A stretch of 64,000 nt of DNA from Chloroflexota bacterium (lineage in GTDB: Bacteria > Chloroflexota > Limnocylindria > Limnocylindrales > CSP1-4), in NCBI GenBank assembly GCA_046045415.1, contig JBJOLT010000015.1, forward strand, positions 5,988 to 69,987, read 5' to 3'. Under the pieces are notes generated by a model. The model was not told the DNA's origin. It did no database searches and saw only the letters and a list, made by a program, of their open reading frames with translations. Shown here piece by piece: positions 6,777 to 63,566 of the stretch; position 1 is the first letter of the stretch; each line of letters starts with the position of its first letter. A program made the position numbers and the translations under genes.

Positions 6777-6791
6777 CGTCCTCTTCCTCCG

Positions 6792-14654: not shown

Positions 14655-14718
14655 CGGAGCCCGGCCGGCGGACCGCGCCGGCCGATCGGTCCCGCAGCGT
14701 GCGTCGACCGCGGCGTCT

Positions 14719-34880: not shown

Positions 34881-36668
34881 TCAGCGGAGCGGGATCGAGA
34901 GCTGCGCCACGCCGCGGAGCCCGAGGAGGTCGGTCCCGCTCACGGCGATCGAGAGGCGACCGGCCGTCCCGCCCCGGAGGACGGGGATCCGGGCGACCCA
35001 GCGGTCGCCCTCGAGGACCATCCGGACGCTCCGCGCCGCGAGGCCGGGCTGCATGACGCGGGCGACCGGCGGCGCGGCGACCGGCTCGGCCGCGGCCGCG
35101 GTGAGGACGAGGATCCCGCCCCGGACGGCGATCGAGCGGCCGGTCGCGAGGGCGAACGGCCCGACCCCGATCGGCACCCCGATCCGGGTCGCGAGCCCGC
35201 CCGACGCCGCGACGACGCTCGCCCGGTACGTGCCCGGCGCGACGGGGCGGCCGTCCGCCCCGATCCCGTCCCAGGGGACGGCGTGGAACCCGGCCCCCCG
35301 CGGCGCTCGCGGGGCGACGGTCGCGACGGTCCGGCCGGCCGCGTCGAGGATCGCGACCGAGACGGTGGCGGCCGCCGCGAGCGTGAACGAGACCTCGGTC
35401 GCGCCGGGGGCGGTCCCGTTCGGGTCCGCCGGCCAGATCGCGGGGAGGCTCGTGGCGACCCCCGCGAGCGCCGTGTGGACGGCGATCCGCTTCTGGAGCG
35501 GCGGCGCCACGTTCCCGGCCGCGTCGCGGGCGGAGACGGTCGCGACGTACCGTCCGTCGGGGACGACCGCGCCCGCGTCGTCGCGCCCGTCCCACGTGAC
35601 GGTCGTCCGTCCCGGAGCGACGGGGAGCGACCAGGCGCGGACCGGGCCGCCTCCCTCCGCGGCGATCGCGACCTCGAGCAGGCCGCCCTCGCCGAGGGCG
35701 AGCGGGAGTGCGATCGACTCGCCGACGCCGTCGCCGTTCGGCGAGAAGGTGACGGGGGCGAGGGCGTTCCCGACCGCGACGAGCGTCGGCGGGGCGACGT
35801 CGGGGGGCGGGGCGACGACCGGGGCGCCGAGCGCCGGATCGAACGGCGCGAGCGGGTCGGACGAGGTCGCGCCGCGGACGGCGTCGGTCGTGAGCGACGG
35901 GTCGCCGAGGAACGAGCGGTAGAAGCCGGTCGTCGGCGTCTCCGGATCGAGCTGGCCGAGCCGGCCGGGCGTCCGGACGCTCTGGAAGGGGATGAGGTTC
36001 CAGTTCGCCCCCGGCGCGACCCGCCAGAGCGAGTCGAGCGTCTGGCTCGTCGCGAAGAGCGCGTTCATGTAGTAGACGGAGCCGCGGTGCGCGTCCGCGA
36101 TGACGGCGCCCGCGCCCGCCGCGCTCCAGCCGGCCGCCATGTTGTCGACGCGCTGCTGCGCGACGTCGATCGTCGGCTCGCCCCGGCCCGGCTCGGAGTT
36201 CCCCGAGGCGTAGCAGAGGTGGTGGAGGAGGACGAGGGCACCCGGCGCCAGCCTCACCTCGGCGGCGAGATACGCCTCGCCCCAGTAGCGGGTCGTGGAG
36301 TCGCCGCTCCCCGGATACGGGTTGAGGCCGAGGCCGTCCTGGGTCGCCGGGAGGAGCGTGGTCGAGTACGGGCTCGGGAACCCGTTCCCGTGGCCGAGGT
36401 AGACGACGACGTTCGCGCCCTGGAGCGCCGGCTTCGCGAGCTCCCACGTCGCGTTCGGGGAGTAGAGGGTCGTGACGTCGCTCGTCCACCGGCGGGCCTC
36501 CGCGGCGATCGCCTCCGCCTCGCTCCGATACGAGGAGGTCATCGAGCCGGCGGGGCCGACGATGACGACGACCTTCGGCGGGGTCGCGGCGGCGACCGGC
36601 GGGGCGGCGAGCCCGAGGGAGCCGGCGGCGGCGAGTGCCGCGAGGATGACGGCGACGAGTCGGTTCAC
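34881..36668 (-). CDS. Secreted protein: N-terminal putative caspase/gingipain-like (His-Cys) domain plus C-terminal FlgD-Ig-like domains
   Basis: Signal peptide. YLGHGNG...HHLCYASGNS is spaced like a clan-CD His/Cys dyad. C-terminal TVTWDGRDDAGAVVPDGRY-type repeats resemble FlgD Ig-like domains. Confidence 0.6.
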   Translation of the reverse strand: MNRLVAVILAALAAAGSLGLAAPPVAAATPPKVVVIVGPAGSMTSSYRSEAEAIAAEARRWTSDVTTLYSPNATWELAKPALQGANVVVYLGHGNGFPSPYSTTLLPATQDGLGLNPYPGSGDSTTRYWGEAYLAAEVRLAPGALVLLHHLCYASGNSEPGRGEPTIDVAQQRVDNMAAGWSAAGAGAVIADAHRGSVYYMNALFATSQTLDSLWRVAPGANWNLIPFQSVRTPGRLGQLDPETPTTGFYRSFLGDPSLTTDAVRGATSSDPLAPFDPALGAPVVAPPPDVAPPTLVAVGNALAPVTFSPNGDGVGESIALPLALGEGGLLEVAIAAEGGGPVRAWSLPVAPGRTTVTWDGRDDAGAVVPDGRYVATVSARDAAGNVAPPLQKRIAVHTALAGVATSLPAIWPADPNGTAPGATEVSFTLAAAATVSVAILDAAGRTVATVAPRAPRGAGFHAVPWDGIGADGRPVAPGTYRASVVAASGGLATRIGVPIGVGPFALATGRSIAVRGGILVLTAAAAEPVAAPPVARVMQPGLAARSVRMVLEGDRWVARIPVLRGGTAGRLSIAVSGTDLLGLRGVAQLSIPLR

Positions 36669-36812
36669 GCGATCGAGACCTCCGCTCTGCGAGGGAGGAC
36701 GATCGTGGGCGCGGCCCGGGGTGGTGCGCAGCCGTGCGAAGGTCCGCGGGTCGCTGGCCCCTTCGTCCGGCTGTGCCCGGTGCGCGGACGCCCACGGCGG
36801 GGCGGCCGCCCG

Positions 36813-37796
36813 CTACGGGACCGGGGTCGGGCTCGGCGCGGCGGGGTCGGGGGTGACGAACGGCTGCTCCGAGTCGGGGAGCGTCCCGTCGTCGTTCGTC
36901 ACCTCGGTCGGCTGCTCGCCGAGGTCCGGGAGGCCGCCCTCGTAGTCGGTGATGACGAGGACGTACTCGAGCCGGTCGAGGTCGGCGGTCGGCTGGAGGT
37001 AGGCGGTCTGGACGACCGCGTTCGCGTCGCGGATCACGTCGACGACCTGGCCGACGACGAGGCCCTTCGGATACGGGGAGCGGACCCCCGACTGGAGCTC
37101 GATCCCGGCGGTGACCACCTCGTCGCCGATGAGGATCTTCTCCGTCGAGTCGATGTTCCGCATGACGAGGACGCCGCCGAGCTGGCCGTCGATCTCCCCG
37201 GTCGCGGCGCTCGCCTGCAGCTGGCCGATCACCGTCGAGCTCGTGTCGTTGATGAGGACGACGTTCGCGGCATCGCGGCCGACCTGGACGACCCGGCCGG
37301 CGAGCGCGCCGCCCGCCGCGATGACGACGTCGCCGACGGCGATCCCCTGCGCGGTCCCGACGTCGATCGTGATCACCCGTCGGAAGTCGGACGCATCACG
37401 GCCGATGACGATCGCGGTGACGGTCGCGAACTGGAGTCCGTTCCGGAGCTGGAGGAGCCCGGTGAGGAGCTCGTTCTCCCGCGCGAGCTCGACCGCCCGG
37501 GCGTTCTCGGCCCGGAGCCGCGCGTTCTCGTCGATGAGCCGGGCGTTGTCGCGCCGGAGCCCGTCGATCTCGGTGAGCGCCGCGGTGATGGACGCCCCCG
37601 TCCTCGCGACCGAGGTGAGCGCCGCCTGGAGCGGCCGGAAGGCGAAGCCGATCCCCTTCTGGACCTCGACGATCGGCTCGGCGCTCGAGAAGGCCATGAG
37701 GACGACCGTCGCGACGAGGAAGACGACGTACGTGGCGACCCGCCGCCGCGCGGCGCGCGCGGCGAGGGCGGCGGCGGAGGGACCGACCCCGGCCAT
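36813..37796 (-). CDS. mreC: Rod shape-determining protein MreC
   Basis: N-terminal TM anchor, a coiled coil (LRAENARAVELARENELL) and the MreC beta domain. Confidence 0.85.
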   Translation of the reverse strand: MAGVGPSAAALAARAARRRVATYVVFLVATVVLMAFSSAEPIVEVQKGIGFAFRPLQAALTSVARTGASITAALTEIDGLRRDNARLIDENARLRAENARAVELARENELLTGLLQLRNGLQFATVTAIVIGRDASDFRRVITIDVGTAQGIAVGDVVIAAGGALAGRVVQVGRDAANVVLINDTSSTVIGQLQASAATGEIDGQLGGVLVMRNIDSTEKILIGDEVVTAGIELQSGVRSPYPKGLVVGQVVDVIRDANAVVQTAYLQPTADLDRLEYVLVITDYEGGLPDLGEQPTEVTNDDGTLPDSEQPFVTPDPAAPSPTPVP

Positions 37797-37814
37797 CGAC
37801 GACCCGGGCCCGGG

Positions 37815-38953: not shown

Positions 38954-39724
38954 TCACTCCGCCGCGCGTGCCGCCGACGGCCCCCGGTCGAAGGCGACGC
39001 CACGGTCGCGGAGGCTGACGAACGCGTCGTGCCCGACGACGAGGTGGTCGAGGACCTCGACGTCGAGGAGCCGGCCGGCCGCGAGCGCCTCGGCGGTGAG
39101 ATGGAGGTCGTCGGGGCTCGGGGTCGGGTCGCCCGACGGGTGGTTGTGGACGAGGATCACCCCGACGGCGTTCTCCCGGACCGCGTCGCGGAAGAGCTCC
39201 CCCACCCGGACGAGCGACGCGCTCACGTTCCCCTGGTAGACCGTGACGACCCGGAGGACGGCGTTCCGGCTGTTGAGGAGGACGACCCGGAGCTCCTCGC
39301 GCTCGAGCCGGCCCATCTGGAGGACGAGCCGGTCGGCGATGTCCCTCGGGGAGCGGACGATCCAGCGGCCGGTCGGCCAGTCGGCGAGGAGGCGGCGACC
39401 GAGCTCGAAGGCCGCGACGAGGCGCGCCGCCCGCGCGGCACCGACCCCCGGGAGCGAGTCGAGCTCCGACGGCGCGGCCCGCGCGAGACCGCTCAGCCCG
39501 TCATGGCGGGCGAGCGCGTCCTCGGCGATCGCGACGGCGCTCGCGCCCCGGACGCCGCTCCCCCAGAGGAGCGCGATCAGCTCGGCCGAGGTGAGGCCGG
39601 CGACCCCGCGCTGGACGAGGCGCTCACGGGGTCGCTCCGCGGCGGGGAGCTCCCTGATCGTGCGACCCGGCCGTGCCGCCCGCCCCCGGGGCGCCATGCC
39701 CGTCCCGTCTCCGCTCACGTCCAC
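38954..39724 (-). CDS. radC: RadC-family JAB-domain protein (UPF0758)
   Basis: HhH N-terminus plus a JAMM motif (HNHPSGDPTPSPDD). The start is probably the internal MAPRG. Confidence 0.85.
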   Translation of the reverse strand: MDVSGDGTGMAPRGRAARPGRTIRELPAAERPRERLVQRGVAGLTSAELIALLWGSGVRGASAVAIAEDALARHDGLSGLARAAPSELDSLPGVGAARAARLVAAFELGRRLLADWPTGRWIVRSPRDIADRLVLQMGRLEREELRVVLLNSRNAVLRVVTVYQGNVSASLVRVGELFRDAVRENAVGVILVHNHPSGDPTPSPDDLHLTAEALAAGRLLDVEVLDHLVVGHDAFVSLRDRGVAFDRGPSAARAAE

Positions 39725-39887
39725 CCCGACCTCCAGCGCTGGATCCCCGGACCCGGACGACGGAGCCCGCCGATTCCCCCGCCATCCGGATCCGGGGACG
39801 AGGCGAGACTAGGCGGCGCCGCTCACCGGTCGATCGACGGGGCCTCCACCCGGGCTCGCCGCCGGCGCCGTCGTCGGGCGAGGGCCG

Positions 39888-42525: not shown

Positions 42526-45500
42526 TCACGGGGCGGGGCTGGCGCCGCCGGTCAGCTCGGCGAGCTGGCTGAGCGCCTCCTCGACGAGCGCGATCTCGCT
42601 CCCGTACGTGGCGAAGTCGCCGCGGCGGAGCGCCGCCTGCGCGAGCTCGAAGTGAAGGTTCGCGTACTCGATGAGCGCCGCGACGTCGCCGGTCGGCGGG
42701 GTCGGCGCGGGGCTCCCGCCCGGCGCCGGCGTCGGGGTCGGCGTCGCACCGCCCGAGCCGCCCGAGCCGCCCGAACCCCCGGAGCCGCCGGTCCCGTTCG
42801 AGGCGAGCTGCGCCTCGAGGGCCTCCTCGAGCGTGTCGCCCCAGACGACGGTCGTCGAGGTCGCGATGATCACCTTCTGGAGCTCGGGGAAGGCGGAACT
42901 CGTCGACTGCAGGTAGATCGGCTGGAGGTAGATGAGCGAGTCCTGGATCGGCATGACGATCAGGTTCCCGCGGATCACCCGGCTCCCGGCCTGGCTCCAG
43001 AGGCTGATCTGCGCGCTGATCGTCGGATCGGCGTCGATCCGCGCCTCGATCTGGTTCGGGCCGAGGACCGACGTGTTCTCCGGGAACTTGTGGACCCGGA
43101 CCTCGCCGTACGCCTCGCCGTCGTTCCGGGCCGCGATCCACGCGATCATGTTCGGCCGCCGCTGCGGGACCATCGGCTGGAGGAGGAGGAACTCGGTCGC
43201 GGTCTCCCCGGGCATCCGCATCTGGACGTAGTACGCCTCGGCGGGGAGCGTCTGGTCGCTCCCCGAGTCGACCGGGACGGTCCAGAGGTCCTCGCGGTTG
43301 TAGAAGGCGGCCGGGTCGCTCACGTGGTAGGTGGCGTAGAGGCGCGTCTGGACGTTGAAGAGCTCCTCCGGGTAGCGGACGTGCGAGCGGAGATCCTCGG
43401 GGAGCTCGTCGAGCGGCCGGAAGAGCGTCGGGAAGACGCCGCCGTAGGCCCGGACGAGCGGGTCGTCGGTGTCCGCGACGTAGAAGCTCATCGTCCCGTC
43501 GTACGCGTCCATGACGACCTTCACGGAGTTCCGGATGTAGTTGAACGGAAGGTCGCCGAGCCCGGTCCCGGGGAGTTCGAGCGGATCGAAGCGCTGGGCG
43601 TTCGGGAAGCGGTCGCTCACGGAGTAGGCGTCCTGGATCCAGACGAGCCGGCCGTCCTCGCGGATGACGAGGTACGGATCCTTGTCGTACCGGAGGAAGG
43701 GGGCGACGAGCCGGAGCCGCTCCTCGAGCGATCGGTGGAAGAGGATCTGGCTCTCCGAGGTGACCTGGTCGCTGATGAAGAGGTTCAGGTCGCGGAAGCG
43801 CGCGGCGAAGAGGAGCCGCGTCAGCGTGTTGTCGATGCGGACGCCGGTCGTGCCGGTCCAGCGGGTCTGCTGCCCGAGCCCGGCCGAGCCGCCCTCCGCG
43901 TCGCTCCCGACCGGGTAGTCGAACTCGCTCTGGCGGGCGCCGACGAGGACCCAGTCGCTCGGGCGCTCGCCGAAGTAGATCCGGAACTGGTCGATCGACG
44001 GCGCGCCGTCGACGGAGACGGGCGGGAGATCCTTGACGTAGAGGTTCGGCTGGCCGCTCTGCGTCGCCTCGTTCACCGGGACGAGGACCGCCCCGACGCC
44101 GTGCGTGAAGGTGATCTTCTGGTTGACCCACGAGTTCGCCTGCGGGTTCTTCTCGGGGGCGAGCTCGCGCGCCGAGAGCATCACCTGGCGCTGCTCGCCG
44201 TCGATCAGATAGCGGTCCGTGTCGACGTCGACGAACTCGTAGTACTGGCGGACCGTCTGGACCTGGTCGATGACGTCGCGGAGCGGCCGGTAGTCCCAGA
44301 CGCGGGCGCTCCGGAAGGTCTCGTCCTCGGCGGCGACGCTCGCCGCGGTGAGGGGCGCCTCGCCGCCGTAGTCGACCTGGCGCCAGTCGTCGAGGTCGTA
44401 GGCGAGCCGCGTCATCTCGATGTTGTTCCGGATGTACGGCTGCTCCTGGGCGAACTGGTTCGGGACGACGGTGAAGCGCTGGATGAACTCCGGGTAGAGC
44501 GTCCCGAGGACGACGGATGCGCCGAGCCAGATCGCGACCGTCATCGCGAGCGGCCAGACCATGTTCGTGAAGGCGCCGCCGACGAGGAACGCGGCGGCGA
44601 GCGCTGCGATCGCCGTGAGGACGTCGAGGCCGAGGAAGCGGGCGTTCGCGTCCGTGTAGCTGACGCCGGTGGCGACGCCCTGGGCGCCGTAGACGAGCTC
44701 GTACTTGTCGAGCTGGTACCCGGCGGCGACCGAGAGGAGGTAGAGGCCGGCGAGGACGCCGATGTGGACCCGGATCGGCGTCGTGGGGCGGAGGTCACCG
44801 CGGAGCCCCGCGAGGAGGTACCGGGCGCCGGCGACGATGAGCGCGCCGACGACGAGCCCGTTGAGGACCGACTGGACGAGCCGGAGGAACGGGAGGTCGA
44901 AGAGGAAGAACGAGATGTCCTGCCCGAAGACCGGGTCCGGGGCGGCCGCACCGGCGGCGTCGAACGGGACGCGGTTGAGGTAGAGCTGGATCGTCTCCCA
45001 CGACCCGGCGGCCGCGGCGCCGATCCCGAGCGCGAGGAGGAGCGAGAGGCCGACGATGAGCGGGATCCCGACCGGCCCGAGATCGGGCATCGAGGCGCCC
45101 GGCGTCACGTCGCGGGCCCCGCCCGACCGGGCCCGGTAGCGGTCGTCGCCCTGACCGGAGACGGTCCAGCCGCGCTCCCCGGCGGCGGCCGCCTCGTTCA
45201 TCCGGTCGATGAGGCGGGCGAGGGTCCCGCGGCCGTCCGGATCCGGCGGCGGGCCGAGCCGACCGGCGACCCAGAGGTTCCCGAGCAGGAAGAGGAGCGC
45301 GACGGCGAGGGCGGCGGCGAAGAGGATCAGCTGCGTCCCGACGCGGGTCCAGAAGACGTCGTCGTAGCCGACGCTCGTGAACCAGATCGCGTCGGTCCAG
45401 AGGTCGAGGACGAAGCCGCCGAGGAGGAAGACGAGGAAGGCGACCCCGGCGACGACGGTGAGGGAGACCTGGCGGACGGCGCCGATCCCGGCGCCGTCGT

Positions 45501-45717
45501 TCGGTCCGCCGGCGCCCCGGCGCGGCGGGCGCGGCCCGGACCCGCCGGGTCCGTCGGCGCGGGGCCGCCGGATCGGCTCCGGCTCGTCGTCCGCGTCCCG
45601 GTCGCCGGGGTCGCGCGGACCGCTCTCGCCGGGCGGCCGCTCGCCGCGGGCCATCGCGGCCTCGGCTTCCTGGCGGCGCCGCAGCTCTTCCATGAACTCG
45701 CCGAAGAGGTCCTTCAT
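42526..45717 (-). CDS. UPF0182-family large integral membrane protein
   Basis: 1063 aa. The architecture and conserved blocks are typical of actinobacterial UPF0182 proteins. There is a C-terminal GGS/PT-rich linker. Confidence 0.8.
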   Translation of the reverse strand: MKDLFGEFMEELRRRQEAEAAMARGERPPGESGPRDPGDRDADDEPEPIRRPRADGPGGSGPRPPRRGAGGPNDGAGIGAVRQVSLTVVAGVAFLVFLLGGFVLDLWTDAIWFTSVGYDDVFWTRVGTQLILFAAALAVALLFLLGNLWVAGRLGPPPDPDGRGTLARLIDRMNEAAAAGERGWTVSGQGDDRYRARSGGARDVTPGASMPDLGPVGIPLIVGLSLLLALGIGAAAAGSWETIQLYLNRVPFDAAGAAAPDPVFGQDISFFLFDLPFLRLVQSVLNGLVVGALIVAGARYLLAGLRGDLRPTTPIRVHIGVLAGLYLLSVAAGYQLDKYELVYGAQGVATGVSYTDANARFLGLDVLTAIAALAAAFLVGGAFTNMVWPLAMTVAIWLGASVVLGTLYPEFIQRFTVVPNQFAQEQPYIRNNIEMTRLAYDLDDWRQVDYGGEAPLTAASVAAEDETFRSARVWDYRPLRDVIDQVQTVRQYYEFVDVDTDRYLIDGEQRQVMLSARELAPEKNPQANSWVNQKITFTHGVGAVLVPVNEATQSGQPNLYVKDLPPVSVDGAPSIDQFRIYFGERPSDWVLVGARQSEFDYPVGSDAEGGSAGLGQQTRWTGTTGVRIDNTLTRLLFAARFRDLNLFISDQVTSESQILFHRSLEERLRLVAPFLRYDKDPYLVIREDGRLVWIQDAYSVSDRFPNAQRFDPLELPGTGLGDLPFNYIRNSVKVVMDAYDGTMSFYVADTDDPLVRAYGGVFPTLFRPLDELPEDLRSHVRYPEELFNVQTRLYATYHVSDPAAFYNREDLWTVPVDSGSDQTLPAEAYYVQMRMPGETATEFLLLQPMVPQRRPNMIAWIAARNDGEAYGEVRVHKFPENTSVLGPNQIEARIDADPTISAQISLWSQAGSRVIRGNLIVMPIQDSLIYLQPIYLQSTSSAFPELQKVIIATSTTVVWGDTLEEALEAQLASNGTGGSGGSGGSGGSGGATPTPTPAPGGSPAPTPPTGDVAALIEYANLHFELAQAALRRGDFATYGSEIALVEEALSQLAELTGGASPAP
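42749..42795. repeat. Tandem 9-nt repeat (cccgagccg x3-4) encoding a (GGS)n linker in the UPF0182 protein
   Basis: Seen directly in the sequence. It translates to GGSGGSGGSGGSGG followed by a PT-rich stretch. Confidence 0.5.
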
Positions 45718-45799
45718 CGTCTCGCGATCTCTCGTGGGCGGTGGGACTCAGGGGTCGAGGGGGTCGGGCGTCTGGGAGGAAGCGTACGACGAATCCCGT

Positions 45800-46255: not shown

Positions 46256-46500
46256 CGGCGCCCGGACCGGTCCTCCTCGCCCTCGTCGGTCCCGATCAGG
46301 AGGCGGAGGAGGAGGCCGCGGCGCGGCCGGGGACGCTCGGGGAGGGCGACGGTCGTGACGCCGGGGATCGGCGGGAGCTCGTCCTCTGCGGCGCCCGGCT
46401 TCGGGAGCGTCGCGCCGCACGACGGACAGACGGCGGCCGACTTCGCCCGCGACGCCTTCGGGAGCGGCTCCGAGCACCAGGGGCAGGCGGTCACTCCCAT
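46252..46500 (-). CDS. Small zinc-ribbon protein (83 aa, CPWC...CPSC)
   Basis: Starts [14 protein letters not shown]...CPSCG. It overlaps the guaA stop by 10 nt. Confidence 0.45.
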
Positions 46501-48236
46501 TCGATCGTCGCCGGCGGCTTCGAGCTGATGTCGTAGACGACGCGGTTCACGCCGGGCACCTCGTTCACGATCCGGGCGGAGATCCGCCCGAGGACGTCGT
46601 ACGGGAGCTTCGCCCAGTCGGCGGTCATCCCGTCCTCGGAGGTGACGGCGCGGATCGCGACGACGTTCGCGTAGGTGCGGCCGTCGCCCATGACGCCGAC
46701 GGAGCGGACCGGGGTGAGGATCGCGAACGACTGCCAGACGCTCCGGTAGAGGCCGGCCGCCTTGATCTCGTCGATCACGATCCAATCCGCCTCGCGGAGC
46801 GTGTCGAGCCGCTCGGCGGTCACCTCGCCGATGATCCGGATCGCGAGGCCGGGGCCGGGGAAGGGCTGGCGCTGGACCATCGCCTCCGGGAGCCCGAGCT
46901 CCAGCCCGACGACCCGGACCTCGTCCTTGAAGAGGTACCGGAGCGGCTCGATCAGCTGGAACCGGAGGTCCGCCGGGAGGCCGCCGACGTTGTGGTGCGT
47001 CTTGATCTTCTGGGCGGTCTTCGTGTCCGAGGTGGCCGACTCGATCACGTCTGGGTAGAGGGTCCCCTGGGTGAGGAAGTCGATCCGCCCGAGCTTCGTC
47101 GCCTCCTCCTCGAAGACGCGGATGAACTCGTCGCCGATGATCCGGCGCTTCTGCTCCGGGTCGATGACCCCCGCGAGCCGGGCGAGGAAGCGCTCCCGCG
47201 CGTCGACCATCACGAGCCGCATCCCGAGGTTCGCCTCGAAGGTCGCGCGGAGGAGCTCCGACTCCTTCTTCCGCATCAGCCCGTGGTCGACGTAGATGCA
47301 CGTGAGCCGGTCGCCGACCGCGCGATGGACGAGCGCCGCCGCGACCGCCGAGTCCACCCCGCCGGAGAGCGCGCAGATCACCTTCCCGTCGGAGCCGGTG
47401 GACGCGGCGTGCCCGTCGACCCGGTCGCGGATCTCCGCGACGGTCGTCTCGATGAAGTTCGCCGGGGTCCACGCGGGGGCGATCCGGGCGATCCCGGTCA
47501 CGAAGTTGCGGAGGAGGTCCTTGCCGCGCGGCGTGTGGACGACCTCGGGGTGGAACTGGATCCCGTAGAGGCGCCGGTCCGGGGCGGCGAGCCCCGCGTA
47601 CGGCGTCGAGTCGGTCTGGGCGGTCGCGACGAAGCCCTCGGGGAGCCGGGTGATCGAGTCGCCGTGGCTCATCCAGACCGGCTGATCCCGCTCGAGCCCG
47701 GCGAAGAGCGCGTCCGACTCGCTCGTCACGTGGACCGACGCCGGCCCGTACTCGCGCTTCGCGGAGGCGGCGACCTCGCCGCCGAGCTCGCGCGCCATCA
47801 GCTGCGCGCCGTAGCAGATCCCGAGGACCGGGAGCCGGCCGCCCCAGATCGAGGCGTGCGGCCGCGGCGCCCCGGCGTCGTAGACGGAGTTCGGGCCGCC
47901 GGAGAGGATCACCGCGCGGACGCCGCGTCGCTCGAGCTCGTCGACCGGCGTGTCGTGCGGGAGGAGCTCGGAGTAGACGTTCAGCTCGCGGACCCGGCGG
48001 GCGATCAGCTGCGCGAACTGGCTCCCGAAGTCGAGGACGGCGACGACGCCCGGCTCCGGGACGATCGCGGCCGTCGGCGGCGGGTCCGACGGCGCCCGCG
48101 ACGGCGCGGGCGCATCGAGCGCGACCTCGAGATAGGCCTCGACCTCCGCGTCGTCGGGCGCGAGGACCCGGTGCCCGGCGTTCGCCGCGTCGCCGTGGAC
48201 GGTCTTCCCGCGCTCGGTCCTCCCGCGCTCGGTCAC
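46491..48236 (-). CDS. guaA: GMP synthase (glutamine-hydrolysing)
   Basis: GATase1 domain (GICYGAQ) plus an ATP-PPase domain (SGGVDS). The N-terminal ~50 aa are probably extension. Confidence 0.9.
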
Positions 48237-48294
48237 GCTCGATCGATCCTCCGTCGGCCGCGTCCACCCCGTCCGCGACAGTCTATCGGTGGGC

Positions 48295-48717
48295 TCACGA
48301 CCGGTTCCGCATCGCCTCGGCGGCCATCGCGAGGTAGCCGTCGATCCGCTCGACGACGACCGGCGGCGTCCCGAGCTCGGCCGCCGTCACGGCGAGCGAG
48401 GCGCGCATCGCCTCGAGCCAGTGGTCGCGCTCCTCCGGCCCGATCGGGAACTCGAAGTGACGCGCTCGGAGGCGGGGGTGGCCGCGCTCGGCGGAGTAGG
48501 TCGTCGGGCCGCCCCAGTACTGGGCGAGGAAGAGGGTGAGGCGGCGTCGGGCGGGGCCGAGGTCATCCCGCTCGGGGTAGAGGCGAAGGAGGACCTCGTC
48601 GGTCGCCACCCGATCGTAGAAGCCGTCGACGAGCCGCTCGAAGAACGGCATCCCGCCGGCGGCCTCGAAGACGCTCGTCTCGTCGTCGGCTCCGGCGGCG
48701 GCCGGTTCGCTCGTCAC
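48295..48717 (-). CDS. Group II truncated haemoglobin (trHbO/GlbO-like)
   Basis: Aligns to GlbO ([41 protein letters not shown]). A GTG start was chosen. Confidence 0.75.
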
Positions 48718-48727
48718 GGGTCCCGGG

Positions 48728-49969
48728 TCAGCCGCCGCGCTGCCAGCTCTTCCCCTCGGTCTGCACCGACGGGGCATGGACGATCTCGACCGCCTGCATC
48801 TCGCGGAGCGTGCGGGCCCCGAGGGCGGCCATCGACTGGCGGAGCGCGCCGACGAGGTTCTCGGAGCCGTCGGTGACGCGCGCCGGGCCGAAGAGGATCC
48901 GCTCGAGGCTCCCGACCGTCCCGACCGAGATCCGCGTCCCGCGCGGGAGCGTCGGCGACGGGGCGGCCATCCCCCAGTTCGTCCCCCGGCCGGGCGCCTC
49001 CTCGGCGCGGGCGAGCGGCGAGCCGAGCATCACCGCATCCGCTCCGGCGGCGATCGCCTTCGCCAGCTCGCCGCCCCGGCGCATCCCGCCGTCGGCGACG
49101 ACCGGGACGTACCGGCCGGTCTCCTTCATGTACGCGTCGCGCGCGGCGGCGACGTCGGCGATCGCGGTGACCTGCGGGACGCCGATCCCGAGGACCTCGC
49201 GCGTCGTGCACGCGGCCCCGGGCCCGACGCCGACGAAGACCGCGGCGGCGCCCTGCTCCATGAGGGCGAACGCCGCTTCCGCGTTCGTCGTGTTCCCGAC
49301 CGCGACCGGGATCGGCATGAAGCGGGTGAAGTCGCCGAGCTCGAGCGGCTCGTAGCCGGTCGCGAGGTGGCGGGCGCTGCTCACCTGGCTCTGGACGAGG
49401 AAGAGGTCGGCGCCGTGCTCGGCGCAGAAGGGACCCCACCGTCGGGCCGCGGCGGGGGTGGCGGCCACCGCGACCTTCGAGCCGGCGTCGCGGATCGCGG
49501 CGAGGCGTCGGGCGACGAGCTCCTCCTGAAGAGGCTCGGCGTATGCCGCCGCGAGCAGCCCCTGGACCTCGTCCTTCGGCGCGGCCGCGATCCGGGCGAG
49601 GACGGCGTCGGGGTCGGGGAAGCGACCCTGGACGCCCTCGAGGTTGAGGACCGCGAGCCCGCCGAGGCGGGCGAGCTCGCCGGCGAGCCGCGCGTCGACG
49701 ACGGCGTCCATCGCGGCGGCGAGGACCGGGATCGCGAGCGGGATCCCGGCGAAGACCTGGGAGAGGTCGACGTCGCCGGGCTCGACCGTGCTCGTTCCGG
49801 GAGCGAGCGAGACGTCCTCGAAGCCGTAGGTCGGGCGGATCGCATCGACCTTCGAGCGGAAGACCCGCCGGGCCGCGGGATCGGTCGCCGAGACCGGGAC
49901 GCCTCTTCCGTGCTGCAACGCGGCCCTCCAGGGTTGCCGGCGCTGCCGGCGGGGGTGAGCGGGTTGCAC
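48728..49969 (-). CDS. IMP dehydrogenase-family protein GuaB3 type (no CBS domains)
   Basis: Aligns along its length to the mycobacterial GuaB3 family (TIM barrel, GVGPGAACTTREVLGIGVPQ). Confidence 0.8.
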   Translation of the reverse strand: MQPAHPRRQRRQPWRAALQHGRGVPVSATDPAARRVFRSKVDAIRPTYGFEDVSLAPGTSTVEPGDVDLSQVFAGIPLAIPVLAAAMDAVVDARLAGELARLGGLAVLNLEGVQGRFPDPDAVLARIAAAPKDEVQGLLAAAYAEPLQEELVARRLAAIRDAGSKVAVAATPAAARRWGPFCAEHGADLFLVQSQVSSARHLATGYEPLELGDFTRFMPIPVAVGNTTNAEAAFALMEQGAAAVFVGVGPGAACTTREVLGIGVPQVTAIADVAAARDAYMKETGRYVPVVADGGMRRGGELAKAIAAGADAVMLGSPLARAEEAPGRGTNWGMAAPSPTLPRGTRISVGTVGSLERILFGPARVTDGSENLVGALRQSMAALGARTLREMQAVEIVHAPSVQTEGKSWQRGG

Positions 49970-50067
49970 GCCAGTCTACAGCGGCGCCGCGGAGGCGGCC
50001 GGATCGACGACCCCGATCGACGTGCCGCACCGGCGTCCGGCCGCGCCGCGCAGCCGTGGCGCGTCCC

Positions 50068-50556
50068 TCAGGTCAGTGCCCGGGCCCCCGCGAGCGTCAG
50101 CTCGAACCAGACGGCGCGCGCCGGGTCCGCGAGATCCTCGGCGATCCGCCGGAGCGCCTCGCGATAGCCGGGCCAGACGACCTCGGCGATCGCGTCCTCG
50201 ATCGGGACCCACCGGTGCCCGTCGTGCTCGTGCGAACGGACGGGCTCGATCCCCGGGCGGACGACGACGGCGAAGACCGCGCTCAAGACGACGGCGTCGA
50301 CCGACGGCTCGTGGAACTGGTTCACGAGGTCGAGGTCGTAGAAGGCCTCGATCCCGTCGGCGGCGATCCCGGTCTCCTCGGCGAGCTCGCGGAGCGCGCC
50401 GAAGGTGATCCGCTCCCCCGGCTCGAGCGACCCGGAGACGCACTGCCAGAGGCCGGGGAGGATCCGGCCCGGGGCGCGGCGGAGGAGCAGGGTCTCGAGG
50501 CGGTCGCCGGCGCGCCGGACGACCCAGCAGTCGACGAGGTCCGGCCTGAGGCTCAC
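50068..50556 (-). CDS. NUDIX hydrolase
   Basis: Nudix box GSLEPGERITFGALRELAEETGI. A GTG start was chosen. Confidence 0.75.
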   Translation of the reverse strand: MSLRPDLVDCWVVRRAGDRLETLLLRRAPGRILPGLWQCVSGSLEPGERITFGALRELAEETGIAADGIEAFYDLDLVNQFHEPSVDAVVLSAVFAVVVRPGIEPVRSHEHDGHRWVPIEDAIAEVVWPGYREALRRIAEDLADPARAVWFELTLAGARALT

Positions 50557-50569
50557 GGGGCGGCGGCGA

Positions 50570-50899
50570 TCAGAGCCGCTCGAACCGCTCGACCGGGACG
50601 ACGAAGACCGTCGCCCCGCCGATCTCCACCTCGAGCGGGTACGGCATGAAGAACTCGCCCGGCTCGACGATCGGCGGCAGCGGGTCGACGACCTGGGTCC
50701 GGGCGCGGCACGTCTCGCGGACGATCCCGAGGATCTCGTCGATCCGATCCTCCTCGGCGCCGACGAGGACGGTCGCGTTCGACTGGCGGAGGAACCCGCC
50801 CGACGACTGGAGGCGGGTCGCCCGGTGGTCGGCGGCGAGGAGCGCCTCGACGAGCGGGCCCGCATCCTCGCCGTGGACGATCGCGATGACGAGCTTCAC
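50570..50899 (-). CDS. darA: PII-like c-di-AMP receptor DarA (YaaQ/DUF970 family)
   Basis: 109 aa aligning along its whole length to B. subtilis DarA (MKLVIAIV..., TRLQSSGGFLRQSNATVLVG, YPLEVEIGGATVFVVPVERF). Confidence 0.8.
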   Translation of the reverse strand: MKLVIAIVHGEDAGPLVEALLAADHRATRLQSSGGFLRQSNATVLVGAEEDRIDEILGIVRETCRARTQVVDPLPPIVEPGEFFMPYPLEVEIGGATVFVVPVERFERL

Positions 50900-50994
50900 G
50901 GGGACGAGTATCGGTCAGGCGGGCCGCCGGGTCCACCCTCCCGGGGACGGTCGGGGGACCGGCCCGGGGAGGGGGCTCGTCGCGACCCCCTACA

Positions 50995-52047
50995 ATGCGC
51001 GGGACGACCCCGGAGGAGGAGCTGGTGGCGATCGAGGGACCCGGCACGGAGACGAAGCTCGACGCGCTGACCGACGCAGCGGCTGCGCTCGCGCGGGCGA
51101 GCGACCTCGACGCCGCGATCGGGGCGATCCTCGACGCGACCGTCGGCGCGGTCGGCGCGACCGCCGGCGCGGTCTTCCTCCGCCAGCCCGACTCGCCGAT
51201 CCTCTACGTCGCCGCCCGCCACGGCCTCGACGACGCCGCGGTCGCGACCTTCGAGCGCGAGGTCGAGGACCCGGCCCACCCGGTCGCCGCCGCCGCCCGC
51301 GACGTCGCCGCGGTCTTCGACCGCCCGGTCGTCGGCGCCGAACCGCGGGCCCGCTCGGCGGCGGACCTCCCGCTCGTCGTCACCCACGAGGGCCTCGACC
51401 TCGCCCTCGGCGTGATGACGCTCGCCTGGGCGAGCGCGCGGACGACCTCCCGGAGCGAGCAGCAGCTCGCGCGCGCCGCCGCGGACCTCATCGCCGCCGC
51501 GGTCGACCGGGCGCACCTCGGCGCGCTCCTCGCCGAGCGGGCGGAGTGGTACGAGCGGCTCACCCACACGGACGCCCTCACCGGGCTCGCGAACCGGCGG
51601 ACCTTCGAGCGGGTCCTCGAGATGGACCTCGCCCGGGCCGCGCGGCAGCGGACCGAGCTCTCGCTCGTCGTCTTCGACGTCGACGACTTCGGGAACCTGA
51701 ACGCGACCCGCGGCCACGCCGTCGGCGACGACGTCCTCCGGACGATCGCCGCGACGATCGCGGAGGGGGTCCGCCTCGTCGACACCGTCGCCCGGCTCGG
51801 ACCGGACGAGTTCATCGTCAGCGCCCCCGGGGCGGGCGGCGTCGTCGTCGCCCGCCGCATCCTCGCGACGCTCGCGGCCGGGAACGCGGAGGGCGGGGAG
51901 CCGTTCACCACCTCCGCCGCCGTCGTCCGCTACCCGAGCGACGGGGCGGACGGTCCGGAGCTGATCGCGGCCGCCGAGGCGGCGATCGCCCGGGCGAAGG
52001 CGCAGGGCCCCGGTTCGGTCGAGGCCGCGGAGTACCTCGCGCCCTAG
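50995..52047 (+). CDS. GAF-domain diguanylate-cyclase-like protein with degenerate GPDEF motif
   Basis: N-terminal GAF domain followed by a GGDEF domain (TGLANRR, VVFDVDDFGNLN) in which RxGGDEF is RLGPDEF. Confidence 0.8.
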   Translation: MRGTTPEEELVAIEGPGTETKLDALTDAAAALARASDLDAAIGAILDATVGAVGATAGAVFLRQPDSPILYVAARHGLDDAAVATFEREVEDPAHPVAAAARDVAAVFDRPVVGAEPRARSAADLPLVVTHEGLDLALGVMTLAWASARTTSRSEQQLARAAADLIAAAVDRAHLGALLAERAEWYERLTHTDALTGLANRRTFERVLEMDLARAARQRTELSLVVFDVDDFGNLNATRGHAVGDDVLRTIAATIAEGVRLVDTVARLGPDEFIVSAPGAGGVVVARRILATLAAGNAEGGEPFTTSAAVVRYPSDGADGPELIAAAEAAIARAKAQGPGSVEAAEYLAP

Positions 52048-52727
52048 GCCCCGGGCGTCCCGACGGCGAGCCCGAGCCGCCGGACCGCATCGGCGAGCGA
52101 GCCCGCGACCGTCGCCTCGTCGCGAGTCGCGTCGACGACGACCCAGCGGGCCGGGTCCTCGGCCGCGAGCCGGAGGAAGCCCGCCCGGACCCGCTCGTGG
52201 AACGCGACGTCGAAGGCCGACTCGAACCGGAGATGCTCGTCGGAGCCCTTCCGCGCGAGACCGGCGGCGACCGGGACGTCGAGGAGGATCGTGAGGTCCG
52301 GCCGGAGGCCGCCGGTCGCGTAGGCGCCGATCGCCCGGAGCTCGTCGACCGGCTGCCCGGAGCCGAAGCCCTGGTAGGCGAGCGTCGAGTCCGCGTACCG
52401 GGCGACGATGACGACCTCGCCGCTCGCGAGCGCCGGCTCGATCACCTCGTCGACGTGCTGGGCGCGGGCGGCGTTGAAGAGGAGGACGTCGGTCCGCGGC
52501 CCGATCGGGACCTCGGCCGGGTCCGCGCGGAGGAGCAGCTCGCGGATCCGCTCGCCGGCGGCCGTCCCCCCCGGCTCCCGCGAGAGCCTCACCCGGTGCC
52601 CGGCGGCGGTGAGCGCCGCGGCGAGCCGGGCCGCCTGCGAGGTCTTGCCGCTCCCGTCGGGGCCCTCGATCGTGATGAACCGGCCGCGCGCGGCGTGCTG
52701 CCGGGGAGGGGCGGTCGGGTCGCTCAC
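52044..52727 (-). CDS. tmk: Thymidylate kinase
   Basis: P-loop GPDGSGKTS, a DRY-like motif and a lid region. Confidence 0.85.
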   Translation of the reverse strand: MSDPTAPPRQHAARGRFITIEGPDGSGKTSQAARLAAALTAAGHRVRLSREPGGTAAGERIRELLLRADPAEVPIGPRTDVLLFNAARAQHVDEVIEPALASGEVVIVARYADSTLAYQGFGSGQPVDELRAIGAYATGGLRPDLTILLDVPVAAGLARKGSDEHLRFESAFDVAFHERVRAGFLRLAAEDPARWVVVDATRDEATVAGSLADAVRRLGLAVGTPGA

Positions 52728-52788: not shown

Positions 52789-54243
52789 ATGAAGGACCTC
52801 GCCGACCTCGCGCTCGACACCGCCACCGCAGCCGGCGCCGGCTATGCCGACGTCCGGATCGTCGAGCGGACGGAGGAGTCCGTGACGGTCCGCTCCGGGC
52901 GGCTCGAGGCCGCCGCCTCCGGGGCGGAGGACGGGGTCGGGGTGCGGGTCCTCGTCGACGGTGCGTGGGGCTTCGCGGCGACCCACCGACTCGAGCGACA
53001 GGACGTGGAGCGGGTCGCCGCCGAGGCGGTCGAGATCGCCCGGGCGTCCGCCACCGCGCTCAGGACCCCGGTCCGGCTCGACGACCGGCCGGTCGCGCGG
53101 GGCCGCTACGAGACGCCGTGCGCGGAGGACCCGTTCGCCGTCCCGCTCGAGCAGAAGGTCGCCGAGCTCCTCGCCGCCGATGCCGAGATGGGCCGGGTGA
53201 AGGGCATCGCGTGGACGGAGGCGACCTACGGGGCGCGACGCGAGCGGAAGACGTTCGCCGCCTCGGACGGCTCCTTCGTGGAGCAGACGATCGTCCACGC
53301 CGGGGCGGGCATCGAGGCGAACGCCGTCGAGGGCGACGAGCACCAGCGGCGGAGCTACCCGATGGACACCGGCTCGTGGCGATCCGCGGGCTACGAGCAC
53401 ATCCGCGGCCTCGGGCTCGTCGAGAACGCCGGGCGGATCGCCGAGGAGGCGGTCGCGCTCCTCTCCGCGCCGCAGTGCCCGTCGGGCCGGATGACGGTGA
53501 TCCTCGACCCGAGCCAGCTCTACCTCCAGGTCCACGAGAGCTGCGGCCACCCGACCGAGCTCGACCGGGTCTTCGGGACCGAGGCGTCGTACGCCGGCAC
53601 TAGCTTCCTCACGACGGACAAGCTCGAGGCCGGCTTCCGGTACGGCTCCGACCTCGTGACGATCGTCGCCGACGCGACCGAGCCGGGAGGCCTCGGCACC
53701 TTCGGCTGGGACGACGAAGGGGTCGCCGCCCAGCGGGTCCCGCTCGTCGAGGACGGGATCTTCGTCGGCTACCTCTCGTCCCGCGAGACGGCCCCGCGGA
53801 TCGGGCGACGGAGCGGCGGGGCGATGCGGGCCGACGGCTGGAACCGGATCCCGCTCATCCGGATGACGAACGTCAGCCTCGTGCCGCGCGACGGGATGTC
53901 GCTCGGGCAGATCATCGAGTCGACCGACGACGGCCTCTACCTCGTGACGAACCGCTCGTGGTCGATCGACGACCGGCGGCTCAACTTCCAGTTCGCGACC
54001 GAGGTCGCGTACGAGGTGAAGGGCGGGAAGATCGGCCGGCTCCTGAAGAACCCGACGTACACCGGGATCACGCCCGAGTTCTGGCGCTCGTGCGACGCCG
54101 TCGCGGACGCGAGCAGCTACCGGATGTTCGGGACCCCGAACTGCGGGAAGGGCGAGCCCGGCCAGGTCGGCTTCGTCGGCCACGGGGTGAGCGGCGCCCG
54201 GTTCCGCGACGTCCAGGTCGGGGTCGGGAAGTGGCGCGGATGA
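52789..54243 (+). CDS. tldD: TldD-family metalloprotease
   Basis: 484 aa with HESCGH. Confidence 0.9.
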   Translation: MKDLADLALDTATAAGAGYADVRIVERTEESVTVRSGRLEAAASGAEDGVGVRVLVDGAWGFAATHRLERQDVERVAAEAVEIARASATALRTPVRLDDRPVARGRYETPCAEDPFAVPLEQKVAELLAADAEMGRVKGIAWTEATYGARRERKTFAASDGSFVEQTIVHAGAGIEANAVEGDEHQRRSYPMDTGSWRSAGYEHIRGLGLVENAGRIAEEAVALLSAPQCPSGRMTVILDPSQLYLQVHESCGHPTELDRVFGTEASYAGTSFLTTDKLEAGFRYGSDLVTIVADATEPGGLGTFGWDDEGVAAQRVPLVEDGIFVGYLSSRETAPRIGRRSGGAMRADGWNRIPLIRMTNVSLVPRDGMSLGQIIESTDDGLYLVTNRSWSIDDRRLNFQFATEVAYEVKGGKIGRLLKNPTYTGITPEFWRSCDAVADASSYRMFGTPNCGKGEPGQVGFVGHGVSGARFRDVQVGVGKWRG

Positions 54244-55604
54244 GGTACGCGCCGCCCCCGCGCGATCCCGCGCCGACGCTCGAGCTCGCCGAGGCCGCGG
54301 TCCGGCACGCGCTCGACGCCGGGGCCGACGAGGCCGAGGCGGTGGTCCTCGCGAGCGACTCGGCACTCACCCGCTTCGCGAACAGCGAGATCCACCAGAA
54401 CGTCGCCGAGCGGAGCCTCGAGGTCCGGCTCCGGTTCATCCGCGACGGCCGGTCCGGGGTCGTCACCGCCGACGCGACGGACGACGAGGGGCTCCGCCGG
54501 CTCGCCGGATCGGCCGCCGGCCTGACGAGGCTCCTCGAGCCGCAGCCGGACCTCCCGTCGCTCCCCGACCCGACGCCGCTCCCAGAGGTGACCGGCGCGT
54601 TCGCCGAGGCGACGGCGACGGCGTCGCCGGCGATGCGGGCCGAGGGGGCACGGGCCGTGATCGCGGCGGCCGACGCGGCGGGTGTCGGGTCGTTCGGTTC
54701 GTTCACGACCTCGGTCGACTGGACGGCCGTCGTCAACTCGCGCGGGATCCGCGTCGCGGAGGCGCGGACCCGGGCGCACCTCGTCACGGTCGCGATGGGC
54801 CCGGACGAGGGGACGGGCTACGCGGAGTCGTGCGCGGTCGACGTCGGCACGATCGACGCGGCGGCGCTCGGCCGGGAGGCGGCCGCGACCGCCCGTGCCT
54901 CGGCGCGTCCGGTGGACATCGCCCCGGGCGACTACCCGGTCGTCCTCGCGGAGTACGCGGTCGGCGACATCCTCGACTACCTCGGCTACTGCGGCTTCTC
55001 CGCCCTCGCCGTCCAGCAGGGACGCTCGTTCTTCGAGGCGGGGAAGCGGATCGGCTCGCCCCTCGTGACGATCTGGGACGACGCGCTCGACCCGGCCGGG
55101 ACGCCGGCGTCGTTCGACTTCGAGGGCGTCGCGAAGCAGCGGGTCCCGCTCGTCGTCGACGGGGTCTGCCGCGAGATCGTCCACGACGCGGCGACGGCCG
55201 CCGCCGCGGGACGCCGCTCGACGGGCCACGGCCTCCCCGCGCCGAACACGTGGGGCCCCTTCCCGCTCAACATGGTGATGCGCGCCGGCGACGCGAGCCG
55301 CGACGAGCTGATCGGCGGCCTGGAGCGGGGGCTCCTCGTGACGCGGATCTGGTACTCGAACCCGGTCCACCAGAAGCAGCTGATCATGACCGGGATGACC
55401 CGCGACGGGACCTTCCTCGTCGAGGGCGGACGGATCGTCGGACCGGTCCGGAACCTCCGCTTCACGCACAGCTATCTCGATGCGCTCGCCGCGACGAGCG
55501 CGGTCGGCCGCGAGCGGCGGACGATCTCGGGGATGCTCGGCACGTACGTCGTCCCGTCGATCCGGGCCGACTCGTTCACGTTCACGGGCGCGACGGAGCG
55601 CTGA
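54240..55604 (+). CDS. pmbA: PmbA/TldE-family protease partner
   Basis: 455 aa, TldD/PmbA fold. ATGA overlap with tldD. Confidence 0.85.
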   Translation: MRYAPPPRDPAPTLELAEAAVRHALDAGADEAEAVVLASDSALTRFANSEIHQNVAERSLEVRLRFIRDGRSGVVTADATDDEGLRRLAGSAAGLTRLLEPQPDLPSLPDPTPLPEVTGAFAEATATASPAMRAEGARAVIAAADAAGVGSFGSFTTSVDWTAVVNSRGIRVAEARTRAHLVTVAMGPDEGTGYAESCAVDVGTIDAAALGREAAATARASARPVDIAPGDYPVVLAEYAVGDILDYLGYCGFSALAVQQGRSFFEAGKRIGSPLVTIWDDALDPAGTPASFDFEGVAKQRVPLVVDGVCREIVHDAATAAAAGRRSTGHGLPAPNTWGPFPLNMVMRAGDASRDELIGGLERGLLVTRIWYSNPVHQKQLIMTGMTRDGTFLVEGGRIVGPVRNLRFTHSYLDALAATSAVGRERRTISGMLGTYVVPSIRADSFTFTGATER

Positions 55605-62975: not shown

Positions 62976-63050
62976 CGCGGCGCGATCCGCGAGCTGCCCG
63001 GTCCGTGGTCCGCACGGACCGCGACCCGGACCCCTGCTAGCATCGCGGCG

Positions 63051-63566
63051 ATGGATGGGGTCGTCCTCGTGCTCAACCAGAACTACGAGCCGCTGAACGT
63101 CTGCAACCTGCCTCGCGCGTTCCGGCTCGTCTTCGGGTCGAAGGCCGAGGTGATCGAGTACGACCACCAGGTGATCCGGACGCCACGGGAGAGCTACCGC
63201 GCCCCGTCGGTGATCCGGCTCCAGCACCAGGTCCGCCGGCCGCGGCCCCGGGTGAAGCTCTCGCGCCGGGAGGTCTTCAATCGCGACCGGCACACCTGCC
63301 AGTACTGCGGGCGGCAGGCGAACGACCTGACGCTCGACCACGTGGTCCCGCGCCGCCATGGCGGCGGCCACTCGTGGGAGAACCTCGTCGCCGCCTGCAA
63401 GGCGTGCAACCACCGCAAGGGCTCCCGGACCCCGGAGGAGGCGCATCTCAGGCTCGTCCGCCCGCCGTTCGAGCCGCGGAGCGACGTCTACTCGCTCTTC
63501 ACCCCCTACCTGGACGACGCGCGGAACGAGGCCTGGCGCGGCTACCTCTTCCTCGGTCGGAGCTGA
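63051..63566 (+). CDS. HNH endonuclease (conserved actinobacterial ~170-aa type)
   Basis: CQYCG...LDHVVPRRHGG...NLVAACKACNHRKG. Confidence 0.8.
   Translation: MDGVVLVLNQNYEPLNVCNLPRAFRLVFGSKAEVIEYDHQVIRTPRESYRAPSVIRLQHQVRRPRPRVKLSRREVFNRDRHTCQYCGRQANDLTLDHVVPRRHGGGHSWENLVAACKACNHRKGSRTPEEAHLRLVRPPFEPRSDVYSLFTPYLDDARNEAWRGYLFLGRS

Follow-up and report, generated by a model that had tools for sequence, protein, structure and literature searches.

A proline in the signature motif of a GGDEF protein, most likely of degenerate receptor type, from a Chloroflexota-specific family

About a quarter of GGDEF domains deviate from the signature (PMC3974145). Among those that do are PopA of Caulobacter crescentus, PelD of Pseudomonas aeruginosa, and SgmT of Myxococcus xanthus, whose degenerate GGDEF domains are receptors that bind cyclic di-GMP (c-di-GMP) at the I-site (PMC3974145, PMC3509222). 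The natural variants AGDEF and SGDEF, which are active, alter the first position of the signature (PMC3974145). At the second position, Gly-to-Ala is a routine inactivating change for diguanylate cyclases (DGCs) in a Vibrio fischeri panel (PMC11575326), CdgA G287A is an inactivating mutation of the same glycine (PMC3359988), and the substitution abolishes DGC phenotypes in many Vibrio enzymes (PMC11575326, PMC3359988). The natural GEDEF domain of Caulobacter PdeA has no DGC activity and still binds GTP (bioRxiv 10.1101/2025.08.14.670421). Here we describe a GGDEF protein gene whose signature reads GPDEF, located at 50995..52047 in a 64,000-nucleotide stretch (the window) of contig JBJOLT010000015.1 from an uncultured Chloroflexota bacterium of the order Limnocylindrales. 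The product is most likely a degenerate GGDEF protein of receptor type, a known kind, within an uncharacterised Chloroflexota-specific family.

Signature motif, I-site and genuineness of the proline

Residue functions were taken from PleD, in which D327 and E370 bind Mg, N335 and D344 bind guanine, K442 and R446 bind phosphates, K332 stabilises the transition state, and R359, D362, R390 and R313 form the allosteric c-di-GMP site, or I-site (PMC12943098, PMC7288161, PMC7911125); the GTP-binding residues include G368 and G369 (PMC7911125). The PleD sequence was checked against 1w25/2wb4 and then aligned to the query by BLASTP. The open reading frame (ORF), 350 amino acids (aa) on the forward strand, contains VRLVDTVARLGPDEFIVS / GVRLVDTVARLGPDEFIVS in the ORF listing with translation, and the features placed on it are as follows.

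50995..52047, +, ORF as called in GenBank, an exact protein match to MFM2105283.1 'hypothetical protein RL338_315 [Chloroflexota bacterium]'
51634..51636, +, R214, I-site residue equivalent to PleD R313 (which in PleD comes from the partner GGDEF domain), kept
51691..51693, +, G233 in place of PleD K332, transition-state Lys lost
51772..51783, +, primary I-site R260-L-V-D263 (PleD R359xxD362), kept, five residues ahead of the signature
51799..51813, +, signature motif G269-P270-D271-E272-F273 (PleD G368-F372), from the sequence and the PleD alignment
51802..51804, +, Pro270 codon CCG, replacing the second Gly (PleD G369); CCC or CCG in relatives
51856..51858, +, R288, I-site residue equivalent to PleD R390, kept
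52009..52011, +, P339 in place of PleD R446, phosphate-binding Arg lost

Elsewhere in the two sites, the equivalents of PleD D327 (D228), N335 (N236), D344 (D245), R366 (R267), G368 (G269), E370 (D271), E371 (E272) and K442 (K335) are all kept, and G369 is lost to P270. The query therefore combines the loss of three phosphate or transition-state contacts (P270, G233, P339) with a complete I-site, in which R260-L-V-D263 is followed by TVARL and then by GPDEF. An earlier note, made from the DNA letters, had described the GGDEF domain as otherwise well conserved and offered FDVDDFGNLN as an example. That description fails on both the K332 and the R446 equivalents, and the cited motif itself holds the former loss, with Gly instead of the consensus Lys. 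Because three contacts are gone, the protein can most likely make little c-di-GMP or none. The same note had proposed that cyclase activity is abolished or altered; its loss or strong impairment fits all of the comparative evidence. G369 binds GTP, and Gly-to-Ala at this position inactivates. A changed product specificity was also considered. The hallmark of cGAMP-producing Hypr GGDEF domains we take to be replacement of the Asp at PleD D344 by Ser or Thr, and Hypr-type specificity was rejected because D245 is retained in the query and invariant in the family.

The GPDEF reading is genuine, reproducible, and under selection. The same signature occurs in all six nearest homologue clusters (P0001-P0006, at 98, 98, 62, 61, 62 and 59% identity), whose contigs were assembled from eight other read sets (SRR32903039, SRR32903073, JGI 3300051163, DRR672267/69/70, SRR34018718 and SRR20069380). 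The proline codon is CCC in six of these relatives' contigs and CCG in two, CCG also being the codon of the window, and the codons flanking it differ synonymously among the relatives. Synonymous variation runs through the I-site codons as well, so constraint acts on the protein. By the Nei-Gojobori method, the ratio of nonsynonymous to synonymous substitution rates (dN/dS) is 0.06 for the window against its 98% relative L001, and 0.14 and 0.21 for pairs within the GPDEF clade; these low values imply that the gene has been under purifying selection ever since the Gly-to-Pro change. Deeper comparisons of the window with relatives at about 60% identity gave 0.39-0.53, values that cannot be relied on, since in this 75% G+C genome synonymous sites are close to saturated.

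The source metagenome-assembled genome (MAG) has a G+C content of 70-79%, and such assemblies may carry errors, so a sequencing or assembly error deserves consideration, as does a decaying pseudogene. Error would have had to place proline in eight other read sets by way of two different codons, and a change from Gly (GGN) to CCG takes two base changes; a pseudogene would be at odds with the intact ORF and with the dN/dS of 0.06. With independent assemblies, synonymous proline codons and low dN/dS all pointing the same way, both explanations are rejected as extremely improbable. The earlier note's reading of RLGPDEF is thus borne out, and the doubt it raised about the base call at the proline codon is settled, without read pile-ups, by independent assemblies that use both CCC and CCG. 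A literature search for 'GPDEF' as a GGDEF variant found nothing relevant by title or abstract.

I-site and catalytic site across the family

A homologue search gave more than 120 proteins, each about 340 aa long and 45-62% identical to the query, and an exhaustive search of representatives found 142 clusters at E<1e-30. Among GTDB species representatives, all 15 near-full-length matches (15/15) came from MAGs labelled Chloroflexota, 'Candidatus Limnocylindrales' or 'uncultured Chloroflexia', while the matches in other phyla cover the GGDEF domain only. Conservation was computed, with sequence weighting, over 167 full-length members picked without regard to the I-site.

Across this family the I-site is invariant while the catalytic site erodes progressively. 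R260, D263 and R288 are each present in 167/167 members, as are R267 and D245, and R214 has a weighted conservation of 1.00. The second glycine of the signature is present in 118/167; the residues found in its stead include Ala (17), Pro (16), Ser (5), Arg (4), Asp (3), Glu (2) and Asn (1), and also His. The first glycine is kept in 160/167, D271 in 161/167, E272 in 159/167, D228 in 152/167 and N236 in 141/167. Lys occupies the K332 position in five of the 167 members, and Arg the R446 position in 48. Signatures in the family include GADEF, GSDEF, GRDEF, GDDEF, GHDEF, GEDEF, GNDQF, GPAEF, GPDLF, GPETF, GPDGF, GPDEV, GRAEF, RAGEF, ADREF and DASAF, and VRLVDT.AR stands unchanged ahead of every variant. 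Four GTDB representatives (L019-L022) read GADEF, GNDQF, GPAEF and GRGEF, and in several of them the D327 and N335 equivalents are replaced as well. GPDEF, at first sight a lone oddity, is one instance of a family-wide erosion. Outside the family, a crude sample of 100 GGDEF signatures from the same searches, which was collected with a regular expression and so misses very degenerate domains, has Gly at position 2 in 99 sequences and Pro in none; Fisher tests of family against this sample yield p=2e-10 when all non-Gly residues are counted and 7e-4 when Pro alone is.

In a neighbour-joining tree, the query and P0001-P0006 form one clade nested among GGDEF-bearing members. The remaining GP members lie dispersed through another clade, deep and degenerate, and GADEF turns up at several unconnected points of the tree. 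These placements imply that proline arose at least twice and that the second glycine was lost many times. The Mg ligands, the guanine ligands and the K442 equivalent are kept in all seven sequences of the GPDEF clade, which, to judge from these residues, stands at an early stage of decay.

Absolute constraint on the I-site, together with repeated catalytic losses, is the pattern expected if the selected function is the binding of c-di-GMP. We favour, with a probability of roughly 55%, the interpretation that this is a catalytically dead or crippled GGDEF protein that would act as an I-site c-di-GMP receptor or adaptor, with output through a partner. A receptor or regulatory role had been proposed in the earlier note, and that much is consistent with the comparative evidence; its further suggestion places sensing in the N-terminal GAF domain, whereas the strictest selection is on the RxxD I-site of the GGDEF domain itself (167/167). 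In the mechanism we envisage, the long helix that joins the two domains would pair two chains into a dimer, intercalated c-di-GMP would occupy the I-sites, with R214 available for cross-linking to the partner domain, and GTP would possibly still sit in the crippled active site. Ligand binding would then rearrange the GGDEF, helix and GAF modules and so alter contact with a partner. The clade has kept its Mg and guanine ligands, so GTP binding by the crippled site may persist, and residual catalysis is possible.

Several observations weigh against this interpretation. Seventy percent of the family still has a canonical GGDEF and an undamaged set of Mg and guanine residues, and the ancestral protein may have been an active, product-inhibited cyclase, in which invariance of the I-site would be expected too. 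Every other active-site residue is kept in the query's clade across about 40% divergence, a retention that could reflect selection for residual catalysis, beyond GTP binding. Finally, no output domain was recognised in the protein and no partner was identified, and a search of all six-frame ORFs with the GGDEF hidden Markov model (HMM) found this to be the single GGDEF gene in the window.

The retained ligands invite the view that the protein is a cyclase that still works, perhaps slowly and under product inhibition. The hairpin in this family would then tolerate residues other than Gly at position 2, and GPDEF would join the active forms of the signature as a new one. All seven members of the clade keep the Mg and guanine ligands and the K442 equivalent, the gene is under strong purifying selection, and an active enzyme under feedback inhibition would be expected to retain its I-site. 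Moreover, the K332 and R446 residues are missing family-wide even with a canonical GGDEF, and the phosphate-binding arrangement may therefore differ here. The variants AGDEF and SGDEF, once presumed dead, proved active (PMC3974145); they change the first position. In relatives of the query, however, position 2 takes Arg, Asp, Glu, His and Asn, and related branches then lose the equivalents of D327, N335 and E371, a scatter that indicates relaxed selection on catalysis, not an alternative catalytic solution. Proline, moreover, has no backbone NH and a restricted phi angle. Even Gly-to-Ala at this position inactivates DGCs (PMC11575326, PMC3359988), and G369 binds GTP (PMC7911125). We consider a working cyclase unlikely.

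It is also conceivable that the crippled active site reads the pool of GTP, or of guanine nucleotides, in the manner of the Caulobacter PdeA GEDEF domain, with the I-site secondary. PdeA provides a precedent for substitution of the second glycine with GTP binding retained (bioRxiv 10.1101/2025.08.14.670421). In the query, N236, D245 and the metal ligands are intact, and D245 is found in 167/167 members, even in branches whose active sites are otherwise ruined. N236 and D228, however, are lost in many relatives and the I-site in none; three phosphate contacts are gone; and the protein carries neither an EAL domain nor any other output module that GTP could control. A GTP sensor is, on these grounds, quite improbable, and one further consideration, from the neighbouring genes, is given below.

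Predicted fold, start codon and gene neighbourhood

The gene encodes a soluble protein, and the domain assignments differ in strength between its two halves.

51046..51444, +, GAF-like N-terminal domain, residues ~18-150, from a sub-threshold Pfam GAF_3 match (2.5e-5), AlphaFold2 (AF2) secondary structure and Foldseek
51451..51567, +, long helix that links the GAF-like domain to the GGDEF domain, residues 153-191, from the AF2 model
51565..52008, +, GGDEF domain, residues 191-338, from Pfam PF00990, PDB sequence matches and Foldseek (TM ~0.8)

The Pfam GGDEF model PF00990 matches residues 191-338 at E=2.8e-30 (105.6 bits, cut-off 23.8), and TIGR00254 matches at E=1.6e-29 (102.8 bits, cut-off 37.4). 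The protein has 48 PDB sequence matches, with PA0575, WspR and PleD on top; PDB matches at 2.8e-24 and below support the GGDEF assignment. The N-terminal half scores below every Pfam cut-off: 25.1 bits for GAF_3 (27), 17.6 for GAF (22.4) and 15.4 for GAF_2 (28.6). Precomputed GAF_2, GAF or GAF_3 matches are, however, present in many homologues. An AlphaFold model built from 66 family sequences (pLDDT 89.9) shows a GAF-like alpha/beta domain, one long helix and a GGDEF fold, and the order of secondary-structure elements in the N-terminal domain is typical for GAF. In Foldseek, the two cyclases that best match the model over its full length are IsPadC (5llw/5llx/6et7), with a PHY-helix-GGDEF layout, and Dcsbis (4zmu), with a GAF-GGDEF layout, and the full-length alignments to 4zmu and 5llw span 357-378 columns; against isolated GGDEF domains the TM-score, normalised to the target, is 0.8-0.86, with a root-mean-square deviation of 2.4-3.3 A. 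The GAF-GGDEF architecture proposed earlier is secure for its GGDEF half, whereas for the N-terminal half the sequence score is sub-threshold and it is the predicted fold, with the GAF matches of homologues, that supports a GAF assignment. The helix-linked layout matches that of the coiled-coil-linked cyclases among the Foldseek matches, and the modelled protein is probably dimeric through its long helix. Pfam and NCBIfam found no EAL match in the protein, which ends 12 residues past the GGDEF domain; the NCBIfam matches are generic and at domain level, each equivalog model falling far under its cut-off, and the family is without a curated name.

The ORF had been given as 50995-52047. Its frame and stop stand, but ATG 50995 is probably not the start.

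50991..50996, +, conserved -10-like hexamer TACAAT, overlapping ATG 50995, from by-eye comparison of intergenic regions
51012..51021, +, Shine-Dalgarno-like GGAGGAGGAG upstream of GTG 51025, read from the sequence
51025..52047, +, probable true coding sequence, 340 aa, GTG start, from homologue starts and family length

Of 180 aligned homologues, 145 start at query residue 11. The family median length is 340 aa, a 340-aa member falls in the same 90% cluster as the query, and GGAGG-like runs lie at equal distance from the starts in homologous loci. The real start is thus probably GTG 51025, with a product of 340 aa, which leaves the GPDEF finding unaffected. TACAAT, TACGAT or TAGCAT occurs in the intergenic DNA between this gene and its divergent neighbour, darA, in L003, L004, L007, L088, L091 and L092, and these hexamers sit 25-85 nucleotides (nt) upstream of the called starts. 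We infer that TACAAT may be the -10 element of a promoter; a consensus scanner run over 50850-52150 found no full sigma-70 promoter and no terminator.

The genes around the GGDEF gene are the following.

46491-48386, -, guaA (GMP synthase)
48728-49969, -, guaB-like IMPDH-family gene
50068-50565, -, NUDIX hydrolase gene
50570..50899, -, DarA/PstA-type c-di-AMP receptor gene, 109 aa (Pfam CdAMP_rec PF06153 2.1e-36; Staphylococcus aureus PstA 4d3g 7e-31; YaaQ 4rle 7e-26)
52044..52727, -, thymidylate kinase gene tmk, convergent (Pfam Thymidylate_kin 2.6e-44)
52789-55400, +, tandem TldD and PmbA-like metallopeptidase genes with a 4-bp overlap at 54240-54243

All homologous loci with upstream DNA (20/20), down to 39% identity of the GGDEF protein, have the DarA/PstA gene directly next to the GGDEF gene in divergent orientation. 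Other genes have been inserted between darA and the NUDIX gene, and also on the tmk side of the GGDEF gene, but none separates darA from the GGDEF gene. In the same loci, identity is 39-62% for the GGDEF protein, 67-81% for DarA, 63-79% for TldD and 66-89% for the GuaB-like protein; the GGDEF protein therefore evolves faster than its neighbours. Adjacency of tmk and darA on one strand is the arrangement in Bacillus too, so the GGDEF gene seems to have been inserted into that operon long ago. The pairing with darA may reflect mere inheritance or coupling. The two genes could conceivably form a functional module that links c-di-AMP signalling in Limnocylindria to the sensing of c-di-GMP (or GTP), whether by direct contact of both small receptors or by co-regulation from the shared promoter region of 95-200 bp; we hold this speculative idea to be quite improbable. 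Literature searches found no paper linking DarA and GGDEF proteins as such a cross-talk node, and nothing on c-di-GMP in Limnocylindria.

The guaA, guaB-like and NUDIX genes follow darA on the same strand, and the block is kept in relatives; genes of guanine-nucleotide metabolism (46491-50565) thus adjoin the gene for a GTP- or c-di-GMP-related protein. This conserved company lends something to the notion of a GTP sensor, but these neighbours belong to a block of general synteny, and their presence may be an accident of history. The TldD/PmbA tandem pair is likewise kept in L004 and L005.

Other observations concern the same neighbourhood. The sequence GAGTATAGG (GAGTATCGG in the window), at 50900-50914, abuts the darA start codon and is found at the same position in L003-L007, L088 and L091; on the darA strand it gives a -10-like box, TATACT/GATACT, just 7 nt from the GTG, a spacing suggestive of a leaderless mRNA for darA. 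The GGDEF gene and tmk overlap at their 3' ends by 4 bp (52044-52047), and the scan of 50850-52150 found no terminator-like hairpin for either. Several relatives carry inserts of 1.5-2 kb between the GGDEF gene and tmk (block insertions are listed for L009, L010, L012, L013, L015, L016 and L019); the insert of L007, at 6022-7505, encodes an ECF-type sigma factor and a zf-HC2/RskA anti-sigma factor. Other relatives have DinB_2 or a two-component system between darA and the NUDIX gene.

An Rfam scan of the whole window for c-di-GMP and c-di-AMP riboswitches found none, its single match being a tRNA.

14718-14794, -, tRNA-Pro(TGG), from Rfam

Further afield, the G+C content of the window is 70-79% throughout, with a peak of 0.77-0.79 at 24-30 kb. 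A very large UPF0182 family protein is encoded at 42526-45747 (-, 1073-aa ORF, Pfam 6.9e-258). A 643-aa ORF with FlgD Ig-like domains (34881-37814, -) lies directly downstream of MreC and adjoins a family 2 glycosyltransferase, an unusual companion for rod-shape genes. The stand-alone HNH endonuclease ORF at 62976-63566 (+) and the RadC-like JAB-domain gene at 38954-39808 (-) are possible mobile-element remnants.

Significance and comparison with known systems

Several degenerate GGDEF domains are already known as c-di-GMP receptors, and this case leaves that picture unchanged. What it offers is a natural series in one orthologous, syntenic gene, from GGDEF through GADEF, GSDEF and GPDEF to fully ruined sites, with the I-site untouched. 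The series could serve to study how an enzyme becomes a receptor, and whether a cyclase can really not do without the second glycine. The case also gives a first look at cyclic-dinucleotide signalling in an abundant, uncultured class of Chloroflexota, and the conserved pairing with a c-di-AMP receptor gene may merit attention.

Set beside the residues expected of a competent cyclase, the query has the Mg, E371 and guanine residues and lacks the second glycine of the signature, K332 and R446. VCA0965 (AGDEF) and ECA3270 (SGDEF) are like it in making a natural one-residue departure from GG(D/E)EF with an RxxD site present. Their change, however, falls on the first glycine, a position tolerant of Ala, Ser, His and Met (PMC3974145), and that of the query on the second.

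Dcsbis (PA2771 of P. aeruginosa, 4zmu) has the same overall layout and size, being a GAF-GGDEF protein of 341 aa with an I-site (Foldseek E=3e-16, sequence E=7.9e-14, identity ~25%). Unlike the query, it is described as a highly active cyclase with a canonical signature (PMC4937426). PdeA (CC3396 of C. crescentus) shares with the query a substitution at the same second glycine and the retention of guanine-binding residues, but its GEDEF domain regulates a fused EAL phosphodiesterase, whereas the query has no EAL, and the residue there is Glu and not Pro.

The sequence features of PopA, PelD and SgmT are all found in the query: the RxxD spacing, R288 and R214, and a degenerate catalytic site. 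Like those three proteins, it has a non-canonical signature with an intact RxxD five residues upstream, and by analogy with them it is presumed to bind c-di-GMP. It differs from them in its input, a GAF-like domain and a helix in place of receiver domains, a membrane/GAF module or a histidine kinase, and in having no recognisable output module. It differs also in degree, since a single signature residue is changed in the query's clade and the Mg and guanine ligands are kept.

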